Shown: in pieces, positions 42,256-44,727 of the stretch
Numbering within the stretch: position 1 is the first letter of the stretch
Layout: the number at the start of each line of letters is the position of its first letter
IMG/VR virus record: IMGVR_UViG_2778261428_000001
Reading direction: 5' to 3' (one strand)
DNA: 46,366 nucleotides
Source: a virus
Lineage: Duplodnaviria; Heunggongvirae; Uroviricota; Caudoviricetes
Made by a program: the position numbers and the translations under genes
Notes under the pieces: model-generated
The model's input: only the letters and a program-made list of their open reading frames with translations
The model's database searches: none
What the model was told of the DNA's origin: nothing

Positions 42256-44727
42256 ATGAATAAAGTCTTTATTTGCGCCGCTATTCCTGACGAACTGGCA
42301 ACAAGGGAAGAAGGCGCTGTGGCTGTAGCCACAGCCATTGAAGCTGGCGACGAACGCCGTGCTCGAGCAAAATTTCACTGGCAGTTCCTGGAACATTATC
42401 CGGCTGCTCAGGACTGCGCTTATAAATTTATTGTCTGCGAGGATAAACCTGGCATACCCCGCCCTGCCCTCGATTCATGGGATGCTGAATATATGCAGGA
42501 AAACCGCTGGGATGAGGAGTCTGCTTCTTTTGTCCCGGTTGAGACTGAATCCGATCCGATGAACGTCACTTTTGACAAGCTGGCCCCTGAAGTACAGAAC
42601 GCTGTCATGGTTAAGTTCGACACATGTGAAAACATCACCGTTGATATGGTTATTAGCGCACAGGAATTGTTGCAGGAAGACATGGCAACATTCGACGGAC
42701 ATATCGTTGAAGCGTTGATGAAAATGCCAGAAGTTAACGCCATGTATCCGGAGCTTAAGTTGCACGCCATTGGGTGGGTTAAGCATAAATGTATTCCTGG
42801 TGCTAAATGGCCCGAAATTCAGGCAGAGATGCGCATCTGGAAAAAACGTCGCGAAGGTGAACGCAAGGAAACCGGAAAATACACGTCTGTTGTTGATCTC
42901 GCCCGCGCCAGAGCCAATCAACAGTACACTGAAAATTCAACAGGAAAAATCAGCCCGGTCATTGCTGCCATTCATCGCGAATACAAGCAGACATGGAAAA
43001 CACTGGATGACGAACTGGCCTACGCTCTCTGGCCTGGTGATGTGGATGCCGGAAACATTGACGGCAGCATCCATCGCTGGGCAAAAAAAGAAGTTATCGA
43101 CAACGACCGCGAAGACTGGAAGCGTATCTCGGCATCAATGCGCAAACAGCCTGATGCCCTTCGCTACGACCGCCAAACTATTTTTGGCCTTGTCCGTGAG
43201 CGTCCGATCGACATTCACAAAGATCCCGTAGCACTGAACAAATATATCTGCGAATACCTGACGACAAAGGGCGTGTTTGAGAATGAAGAAACAGACCTGG
43301 GCACTGTTGATGTTCTCCAGTCATCAGAAACACAAACTGATGTAGTGGAAACTGAGGTATCTGATATCCCAAAAAATGAAACCGCGCCGGAAGCTGAACC
43401 ATCTGTAGAGCGTGAGGGGCCGTTCTATTTCCTCTTCGCAGATAAGGACGGCGAAAAATACGGTCGCGCAAACAAACTTTCTGGTCTGGATAAGGCACTG
43501 GCTGCTGGCGCCACTGAAATCACAAAAGAAGAATATTTTGCCCGAAAAAATGGCACATACACGGGCTTACCGCAAAATGTAGATACCGCTGAAGATTCAG
43601 AACAACCAGAGCCGATAAAAGTTACCGCTGACGAAGTAAACAAAATTATGCAGGCAGCCAATATCAGCCAGCCTGACGCCGATAAGTTGCTTGCTGCATC
43701 ACGTGGTGAATTTGTTGAAGGGATTAGTGACCCGAATGATCCGAAATGGGTTAAGGGGATCCAGACCCGCGATTCTGTGAACCAGAACCAGCATGAATCG
43801 GAACGGAACTACCAAAAAGCGGAACAAAACAGCCCAAATGCGTTACAAAACGAGCCAGAAACGAAACAGCCTGAACCAGTGGCGCAACAGGAAGTGGAAA
43901 AAGTCTGCACCGCCTGCGGTCAGACCGGCGGCGGCAACTGCCCTGATTGTGGCGCGGTGATGGGCGACGCAACATACCAAGAAACATTCTATGAAGAGTA
44001 TCAGGTTGAAGTTCAGCAAGATGATCCGGAGGAAATGGAAGGCGCTGAACATCCACACAAGGAGAACACTGGCGGCAATCAGCATCACAATAGCGATAAT
44101 GAAACTGGCGAGACGGCAGATCACTCAATTAAGGTGAACGGTCATCACGAAATCACATCCACCAGCAGGACGTGTGACCATCTAATGATCGACCTTGAAA
44201 CCATGGGAAAAAATCCTGATGCCCCGATCATCTCAATAGGTGCAATATTTTTCGATCCGCAAACCGGAGATATGGGACCGGAATTTAGTAAGACTATCGA
44301 TCTGGAAACTGCTGGCGGAGTCATTGATCGGGACACCATTAAATGGTGGCTTAAGCAATCACGCGAAGCGCAATCTGCCATTATGACCGATGAAATCCCG
44401 TTAGATGATGCACTGTTACAATTGCGGGAATTTATCGACGAAAACTCCGGTGAATTTTTTGTTCAGGTTTGGGGAAATGGAGCCAACTTCGACAACACGA
44501 TTTTGCGCCGTTCATACGAACGGCAGGGGATCCCCTGCCCGTGGCGTTACTACAACGATCGCGATGTACGCACAATCGTTGAGCTGGGGAAAGCCATAGA
44601 TTTCGATGCCAGAACGGCTATTCCATTCGAAGGTGAGCGCCATAATGCACTTGATGACGCCCGTTACCAGGCAAAATACGTTTCAGTTATCTGGCAAAAA
44701 CTGATCCCGAGTCAGGCTGATTCTTAA
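42256..44727 (+). CDS. Large prophage protein with C-terminal DEDDh-type 3'-5' exonuclease domain (full-length YdfE-like)
   Basis: 823 aa; C-terminus has exonuclease motifs ([33 protein letters not shown]); acidic low-complexity linker and a zinc-ribbon-like [16 protein letters not shown]. Confidence 0.65.
   Translation: [823 protein letters not shown]

Follow-up and report, generated by a model that had tools for sequence, protein, structure and literature searches.

RecE of the Rac prophage (Escherichia coli K-12 b1350, 866 aa) ends in a PD-(D/E)XK nuclease head of 5'-3' polarity (residues 564-866), and the only known effect of its N-terminal region is to enhance linear-linear recombination (PMC11611040). 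In K-12 recE is followed by recT. In lambda, the Exo/Bet (Red) genes occupy the equivalent map slot to that considered here, in the early-left operon between the cell-division/kil-type genes and xis-int. T4 DexA, the structure of which has been solved, is a 3'-5' DNA exonuclease with the published catalytic residues D7, E12, D119, H186, and D191; its E. coli homolog EcD is reported to degrade DNA containing 5-hydroxymethylcytosine (5hmC) and to protect E. coli from T4, and an HREX defence has been proposed (PMC12153337, Kang et al., NAR 2025). Here we describe a gene from a 46,366-nt stretch of viral DNA (Caudoviricetes; IMG/VR record IMGVR_UViG_2778261428_000001; the whole stretch is called the window) whose product joins a RecE-type scaffold to a DexA-type nuclease head. 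It is the full-length form of ydfE (b1577), a pseudogene of the Qin prophage of K-12 that has the same neighbours (dicB-ydfD upstream, int-rspB downstream). As the initial annotation had stated, the window holds the intact 823-aa form of a gene that is disrupted in K-12, where 256 codons are kept up to the point at which IS2E cuts the gene; 255 of these 256 residues (99%) are identical to aa 1-256 of the window protein.

It is fairly probable, in our assessment, that this product is a modular early protein of Qin-type lambdoid prophages, made early after derepression, in which a RecE-type scaffold bears a DEDDh head of the DexA/Rv2179c type and which works independently of an annealase as a 3'-5' exonuclease, probably on DNA. 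The parts of the gene on which this reading is based are listed below, with the predicted local distance difference test (pLDDT) scores of the AlphaFold2 models:

42256..44727, + strand: whole gene, an intact ydfE-type open reading frame (ORF) of 823 aa plus stop, with an ATG start and without internal stop
42242..42245, + strand: Shine-Dalgarno-like GAGG, 10 nt 5' of the ATG, read directly in the sequence
42256..42870, + strand: N-terminal alpha/beta plus helical domain of YdfE_N type (aa 1-205), pLDDT ~90, a divergent homolog of the RecE N-terminus (Pfam Exonuc_VIII)
42973..43284, + strand: helical middle domain (aa 240-343), pLDDT >90, found in RecE 278-345 and in nearly all relatives
43285..43410, + strand: acidic disordered linker 1 (aa 344-385), net charge -12, pLDDT 25-30
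43411..43560, + strand: small beta-beta-alpha-beta-alpha module (aa 386-435), pLDDT 84-93, found in YdfE_N-type relatives and not in RecE
43669..43755, + strand: conserved linear motif in a disordered stretch (aa 472-500), pLDDT 50-65 with a short helix, a family signature that occurs with every head type
43906..43950, + strand: putative C4 zinc ribbon or knuckle, C551-x2-C554-x7-C562-x2-C565, which aligns with the CxxC...CxxC of RecE
43957..44175, + strand: acidic, His-rich disordered linker 2 (aa 568-640), net charge -14, pLDDT 27-42, holding the mosaic joint at gene nt 1867
44179..44694, + strand: DEDDh 3'-5' exonuclease domain of the DexA/Rv2179c family (aa 642-813), Pfam PF16473, with five catalytic residues
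44191-44193, 44197-44199, 44491-44493, 44641-44643, and 44656-44658, + strand: catalytic codons of D646, E648, D746, H796, and D801, respectively

The C-terminal head is the part of the protein that is recognized most readily. Pfam PF16473 (Rv2179c-like) matched aa 642-813 over profile positions 2-177 of 177 with 226.8 bits against a cut-off of 27 (E 1.9e-67), and the DEDDh domain was the only one returned by the Pfam profile search of the protein. The residues D646, E648, D746, H796, and D801 fit the D-x-E (motif I), D (motif II), and H-x4-D (motif III) arrangement and were invariant, down to 38% identity, in an alignment of seven sequences, among them a stand-alone EcD-like protein and four fused relatives of divergent sequence. 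As judged from this alignment the two-metal active site of the head is intact. This agrees with the C-terminal DnaQ-like 3'-5' exonuclease domain of the initial annotation, for which a lack of conservation of the DEDD residues would have been a refutation. The only solved structure clearly detected by sequence was that of T4 DexA (chains 8kel/8ken, E 5.5e-8), and Rv2179c was absent among the seven solved-structure sequence matches obtained at E ≤ 10. In the full-length AlphaFold2 model (mean pLDDT 65.9) the domain spans aa 642-816; Foldseek searches with this model placed DexA 8kel first (E 7e-7), followed by RNase T, oligoribonuclease (Orn), and REXO2, and the top 50 matches were all DEDDh enzymes (DexA, RNase T, Orn, REXO2, ERI2) with a probability of 1.00 and template modeling scores of ~0.5 relative to the targets. 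By analogy with its family, the head would be expected to shorten nucleic acid, most likely DNA, from its free 3' ends.

Residues 1-625, the remainder of the protein, are homologous throughout to the part of RecE that precedes its nuclease, zinc ribbon included. BLASTP aligned aa 262-625 with RecE 278-591 (39% identity overall, E 3e-60), the two being close over aa 474-625, where the ribbon lies, and the middle domain, the GEFV.GISDP.DPKW motif, and the C4 ribbon match RecE directly. Compared as DNA by blastn, the gene shows 77.7% identity to recE from nt 1425 to nt 1867, where the similarity ends, ~20 codons 5' of the DEDDh head. The protein alignment stops at RecE residue 591, and RecE 600-866, the PD-(D/E)XK nuclease, had no BLAST match in the protein. 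The N-termini proper were compared as hhalign profiles built from 15 YdfE_N-type and 11 RecE-type sequences, which aligned (aa 1-258 vs RecE 1-272) over 242 columns with a probability of 98.2% and E 4.8e-14; when cut to the first 185-200 residues they still reached 95% and E 2.9e-8, with 0.3% for a reversed control. Pfam PF06630 (Exonuc_VIII) gave no match on the protein at E ≤ 1. Based on these comparisons, it is the nuclease head that differs from RecE, a DexA/Rv2179c-type 3'-5' DEDDh domain taking the place of the 5'-3' PD-(D/E)XK nuclease; the extra module at aa 386-435 and the lack of a recT partner are further differences. The initial annotation had described the protein as unlike the lambda Exo/RecE type; this holds for the head, which is DEDDh, and does not hold for aa 1-625, which are related to RecE by BLASTP, DNA, and hhalign comparison. 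That the protein is RecE-like except in its nuclease head also explains why many records label it "exodeoxyribonuclease VIII." With lambda Exo/Bet the YdfE-type protein has no sequence or fold relation, its presumed polarity is the opposite one, and the window is without Bet or Gam homologs.

The structure of the scaffold was predicted with AlphaFold2 for aa 1-350, using a 30-sequence alignment, as well as for the full-length protein. The N-terminal model is confident (mean pLDDT 89.4) and shows a disordered loop (aa 206-237) between the N-terminal and middle domains. Foldseek found no match for it in the PDB or BFVD at E ≤ 1e-3, the best hints being small uncharacterized phage proteins of ~65 residues at E ~0.2, which point to no function; the predicted N-terminal fold is without a recognizable relative among solved structures. 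Pfam PF27430 (YdfE_N) and PF27432 (YdfE_C) occur, alongside PF16473, as precomputed matches on relatives that are 88-94% identical. In the full-length model ~270 residues have a pLDDT below 50, chiefly aa 344-384 and 439-640, and the zinc ribbon region is modeled at low pLDDT; the ribbon nevertheless keeps its four cysteines and would be expected to bind metal. The motif at aa 472-500, present in the alignment consensus, is near-identical in RecE and 53-92% identical in relatives. A large N-terminal region of unknown function, an acidic disordered linker, and a CxxC...CxxC ribbon had all been anticipated, and each was recovered, the acidic linker as two separate stretches predicted to be disordered.

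The 823-codon ORF is a real, intact gene under purifying selection. A stop-free run of this length has a computed chance of ~7e-18, and PHROG phrog_2082 was matched over positions 1-822 of its 823-position profile. The protein is 100% identical to RefSeq WP_001045007.1 ("3'-5' exonuclease"), a CDS (coding sequence) in E. coli GMF065. All 80 of the IMG/VR loci kept carry the gene, 78 matched over 822-823 residues and two clipped by contig ends. Ratios of non-synonymous to synonymous substitution rates (dN/dS, Nei-Gojobori), calculated against six relatives that are 93-95% identical, were 0.11-0.31 for the N-terminal domain and 0.08-0.18 for the middle domain; the 386-445 module gave 0.00-0.13 and the DEDDh domain 0.00-0.14. 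The folded modules thus lie at 0.0-0.3, and values of ~0.6-1.5 were confined to the two linkers, linker 1 reaching ~0.8-1.5 where substitutions suffice. A fusion artefact of two genes, or a pseudogene, was considered and discarded on the strength of the full-length IMG/VR loci, the whole-length PHROG match, the low dN/dS, and the E. coli genomes, at least 80% of the gene being covered in 3537 of them.

In order to map how the parts of the protein are distributed, aa 1-640 were searched against 1.84 billion representative proteins (50%-identity representatives) and modules were assigned by BLAST, which yielded 246 relatives; a first protein search had been filled by E. coli relatives that are 87-94% identical, plus one 99% partial match. 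The representatives fall into two N-terminal types and have in common a middle domain as well as the motif, which is near-universal; the 386-445 module and the zinc ribbon are optional, and alternative heads occur at the C-terminus. DEDDh heads are found in P0122, P0141, P0244, and P0135, and P0131 and P0143 combine a YdfE_N-type scaffold with a PD-(D/E)XK head. P0128 has an N-terminus that is 100% identical to RecE 1-275 followed by a DEDDh head 99% identical to that of the window. The phage vB_EcoS-640R1 carries gene nt 1361-2472 at 98% identity behind a recE-like 5' part. Sharp mosaic joints lie at window positions 43616 and 44122 (gene nt 1361 and 1867), and synonymous divergence (dS) varies up to 30-fold among segments of the gene, from which it follows that the gene is itself a recombination mosaic. 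Judging from these sequences, the swapping of heads on a RecE-type scaffold occurs naturally, and the block formed by the motif and the zinc ribbon seems to act as a homologous "linker" for the exchange of N-terminal types and heads.

A third head was found in 14 representatives, as a C-terminal stretch of ~250 aa joined to the YdfE_N/RecE-type scaffold and containing the motif KKSLTDAIKKALS.LGF; the proteins bearing it include P0134 (L098 5001-7370), P0129, P0136, P0153, P0169, P0185, P0188, P0195, P0212, P0232, P0236, P0259, and P0265. It gave no Pfam match above threshold, and a profile search against PDB sequences found nothing. Sub-threshold matches to Pfam Rad52_Rad22 were seen in 8 of 11 members (best E 0.0026), and an hhalign comparison with a RAD52 sequence was colinear, with E 0.019 and a probability of only 2.4%. 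These data are suggestive only, and the third head may be a Rad52-like annealase, i.e., these proteins may be scaffold-annealase fusions. PHROGs labels the third-head proteins "exonuclease," and in two of the loci, L098 and L099, a Sipho_Gp157 gene stands directly after the third-head gene.

The genes around the window gene bear on whether the DEDDh version has a recombination partner. The following neighbours were located, those of dicB and ydfD from the RefSeq annotation of the GMF065 locus:

41560..41611, + strand: DicF small RNA, full-length antisense (Rfam RF00039, 76.7 bits), in the same leftward early operon and upstream of dicB
41786-41974, + strand: dicB
41971-42162, + strand: ydfD, directly 5' of the gene
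44800-45051, + strand: excisionase, directly 3' of the gene
45071-46366, + strand: tyrosine integrase, the stop codon of which is the end of the window

The resulting order, dicF-dicB-ydfD-[gene]-xis-int, is that of a Qin-type lambdoid prophage, and is identical in the cultured phage Tritos and in phage vB_EcoS-640R1. In GMF065 the locus comprises a dicC/dicA-like repressor, ydfA, a ydfB remnant, dicB, ydfD, the gene, excisionase, integrase, and then the chromosomal rspB and rspA, which is the Qin prophage site of K-12. Since DicF is intact before dicB, the cell-division-inhibition module of Qin is intact in the element. Partner genes were searched by tblastn in 83 sequences, namely the window, the 80 IMG/VR loci, and two phage loci. 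Both dicB and ydfD lie upstream in 82 of them, xis is present in 61 and int in 59, and most of the absences of the latter two are attributed to the many IMG/VR contigs that end ~1.6 kb 3' of the gene. RecT, lambda Exo, Bet, Gam, and the RecE nuclease domain were found in none of the 83, no annealase flanks any of 86 DEDDh-head loci, recT is absent from the contexts L097, L101, and L102, and the RefSeq annotation of the near-identical GMF065 prophage lists no annealase. The divergent DEDDh-head genes behave likewise: that of P0244 is followed by excisionase and then integrase, and that of P0141 stands directly before the integrase with no excisionase called, in both cases with no annealase. By comparison, the PD-(D/E)XK-head gene of P0131 is directly followed by a RecT-family gene (Pfam E 2e-36), as recE is by recT in K-12. 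What RecT accompanies in the examined contexts is the 5'-3' head, not the scaffold. As no RecT, Bet, Exo, or Gam is found nearby, the DEDDh version is not a RecET/Red-type two-component recombinase.

Like recE, the ydfE-type gene is part of the leftward early operon of its lambdoid prophage and lies near xis/int. The gap between ydfD and the gene is 93 nt, and promoter- or terminator-like sites around the gene are no more frequent than in shuffled sequence. In K-12, DicA is reported to repress a promoter located 5' of dicB from which ydfD and ydfE can also be transcribed (bioRxiv 10.1101/2024.09.21.614188). Based on its position and on these operon data, the window gene is most likely an early-left operon gene that is silent in the stable lysogen; it would be co-transcribed with dicB-ydfD from the DicA-repressed leftward early promoter, and its product would be made after derepression and not in the quiet lysogen. 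We propose that the scaffold (aa 1-640), i.e., the domains at aa 1-205 and 240-343, the module at 386-435, the motif at 472-500, and the C4 ribbon, set on ~270 acidic disordered residues, may bring the head to a partner or substrate shared with the RecE scaffold, as the common motif suggests. The head, tethered by long acidic linkers and working without an annealase of its own, might then trim nucleotides from free 3' ends, which its family points to being DNA ends. The most likely role would be the trimming or degradation of 3'-ended DNA in lytic development, possibly serving end processing for host-dependent recombination or replication, or the destruction of DNA of the host or of competitors. 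A function distinct from that of RecE and lambda Exo is probable, and the suggestion in the initial annotation that it may lie in recombination or anti-defence is plausible.

Several points weigh against this proposal. The DEDDh part of the full-length model is moderately confident (pLDDT 55-85), with a root-mean-square deviation of ~11-12 Å to the Foldseek matches. Family and predicted fold do not separate DNA from RNA as substrate, since PF16473 takes its name from an exoribonuclease and close fold matches include RNase T, Orn, and REXO2. A recombination role is not obvious either, because a 3'-5' exonuclease destroys the 3' tails normally used in recombination. A partner shared with RecE stays conjecture, as the RecE N-terminus is itself known only by its effect on linear-linear recombination (PMC11611040). 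As to annealases, the tblastn search covered RecT, Bet, Exo, and Gam, and Erf- and Sak-type annealases are excluded solely through the annotation of the near-identical prophage. Lastly, the literature on ydfE and on the Pfam names yields no report of an activity, substrate, or phenotype of the protein, and that on Rv2179c contains nothing on the YdfE-type protein.

DexA and EcD provide the comparison most relevant to function. T4 DexA (PDB 8KEL/8KEN) belongs to the same Pfam family, and its D-E-D-H-D set corresponds to D646, E648, D746, H796, and D801; it differs in being a stand-alone protein of 227 aa with extra loops, shows ~20% identity to the YdfE-type head, and its alignment to this head ends at DexA residue 162, short of D169, which is counted with Trp152 among the 5hmC-reading residues. 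Trp152 of DexA, the reported 5hmC reader, is Tyr766 in the YdfE-type protein, a position held by Y, W, or C among close relatives and by Cys in a head that is 99% identical to that of the window. An EcD-like protein was recovered from IMG/VR with the published EcD forward primer, as a stand-alone DEDDh protein of 189-193 aa (MNHLMIDTETLG...) in six loci (L007, L009-L012, and L014). It has the MIDTET start and the Ala78 published for EcD, and its C-terminus (…PFLNI) fits the published reverse primer only if one primer base is dropped; a 20-mer match of that reverse primer was set aside as a chance match only. On these sequence features the recovered protein is likely EcD (HAK9828821.1). It is 38% identical to aa 641-823 over the whole domain (E 1e-39) and is, like the YdfE-type head, a DexA-family DEDDh exonuclease from E. 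coli. EcD appears to stand alone at ~190 aa, however, and keeps the Trp that is Tyr in the YdfE-type protein, of which it is not the ortholog.

The alternatives to an annealase-independent 3'-5' exonuclease acting on DNA in lytic development can be weighed against this background. That the protein is RecE proper (exonuclease VIII), the 5'-3' dsDNA exonuclease (double-stranded DNA) of a RecET module, is suggested by the label "exodeoxyribonuclease VIII" in phages PhiR42_1, Tritos, and vB_EcoS-640R1 as well as by a match to the NCBIfam RecE equivalog NF007259 (E 1.9e-83); the match amounts, however, to 281 bits where 1269 are needed and extends over profile positions 271-602 of 877 only, and with the RecE nuclease region and recT both missing and a head of opposite polarity, we give this identity a negligible chance. 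Canonical RecE was accordingly rejected on the sub-cut-off score, the missing nuclease domain, and the missing recT. An HREX-type nuclease for superinfection exclusion or defence, which would digest incoming 5hmC phage DNA and spare that of the host, finds support in the Pfam family common to DexA and EcD, in the intact catalytic residues and the whole-domain similarity to the EcD-like protein, in the protection that EcD gave E. coli against T4 (PMC12153337), and in the fact that the gene is prophage-borne. Yet the residue equivalent to Trp152 varies among close relatives, a model based on the ~190-aa EcD leaves 640 conserved scaffold residues unexplained, PADLOC gives a generic Cas-associated DEDDh match only (E 1.7e-5), and a gene in a DicA-repressed early operon should be silent in the very lysogen that needs protection. 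Given the variable Trp152 position and the repressed-operon location, an HREX-type role is possible rather than favoured, and we consider it unlikely. If the DEDDh version were nevertheless a defence or anti-defence nuclease, this would matter, since the gene matches ~88% of complete E. coli genomes.

An anti-defence effector, which would destroy nucleic acids of host immunity such as retron multicopy single-stranded DNA (msDNA), reverse-transcriptase complementary DNA, or linear 3'-OH oligonucleotide signals, would be in keeping with the place of the gene at the distal end of the early-left operon beside xis/int, among accessory genes, with the lack of an annealase partner, and with the rapid exchange of segments in a mosaic with joints at nt 1361 and 1867. 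Retron msDNA has been reported to be acted on by RecE. There is no direct evidence for such an effector, however, a literature search found no DEDDh prophage exonuclease tied to anti-defence, and the recombination heads borne by the same scaffold (the RecE nuclease and possibly a Rad52-like annealase) suggest DNA-end metabolism instead, so that this, too, is a doubtful explanation, with about the same small chance as the HREX type. Slightly more doubtful is a 3'-5' exoribonuclease acting on phage or host RNA, possibly maturing or turning over transcripts of the dicF/dicB operon. The Pfam family is named after the Mycobacterium tuberculosis exoribonuclease Rv2179c, the fold matches RNase T, oligoribonuclease, and REXO2, and "3'-5' exoribonuclease" is the name given in many sources; activity on DNA as well as RNA is frequent among DEDDh enzymes, however, and for this reason database names carry little weight. 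Against an RNA substrate also stand the detection by sequence of the DNA exonuclease DexA as the only solved structure, Rv2179c not appearing up to E 10, and a scaffold common to DNA-recombination proteins. A further view, improbable though less so than the foregoing, is that the RecE-type scaffold is a general delivery platform, in which the motif and ribbon would dock one shared partner or DNA structure and heads would be exchanged at the linker; the DEDDh version would then be a separate, annealase-independent function of Qin-type phages, e.g., an anti-defence or host-takeover nuclease. If this were true, the natural head swaps would offer a way to find the role of the RecE N-terminus.

The protein family is ordinary, extremely common, and already catalogued in RefSeq, Pfam, and PHROGs. 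Megablast found a match to the gene in 4800 of 5426 complete E. coli genomes (~88%), with a median of two matching places and a maximum of 10 per genome with any match. Among phage records there are 30 with a match, which is nearly full length in 17, and the label given is "exonuclease" or "exodeoxyribonuclease VIII"; across all records the labels comprise "exodeoxyribonuclease VIII," "exonuclease," "3'-5' exonuclease," and "3'-5' exoribonuclease." The practical value of the present analysis lies mostly in the correction of annotation: a RecE-type scaffold with what appears to be a nuclease of opposite polarity and no RecT partner is not RecE. Its wider interest is modest, and resides in a scaffold that is reused with different heads while one linear motif is always kept, which gives a handle on the N-terminal 600 residues of RecE.

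Other parts of the window deserve mention. Between the ydfB remnant and DicF, ~750 nt (40800-41560) are unannotated in GMF065 RefSeq, where K-12 has ydfC; this stretch of the window holds a 205-aa ORF (40679-41296, + strand) and a hydrophobic 106-aa ORF (40958-41278, - strand). A 604-aa ORF of low GC content (~0.38-0.45) lies at 35536-37350 (- strand), flanked by the replication genes and hokD, in a place that is taken by relBE, ydfV, and flxA in Qin of K-12; the near-identical GMF065 prophage calls it a DUF262 domain-containing protein, and it could be defence-type cargo. A portal-size ORF (21554-23134, within 19582-25867, - strand) is uninterrupted in the window, and the portal gene of the GMF065 prophage carries ISEc31. 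The window, which ends at the integrase stop codon, measures 46,366 bp and the cultured phage Tritos 46,360 bp, and it is possible that the element can be induced as a phage and is not, as the Qin prophage of K-12 is, a cryptic remnant.

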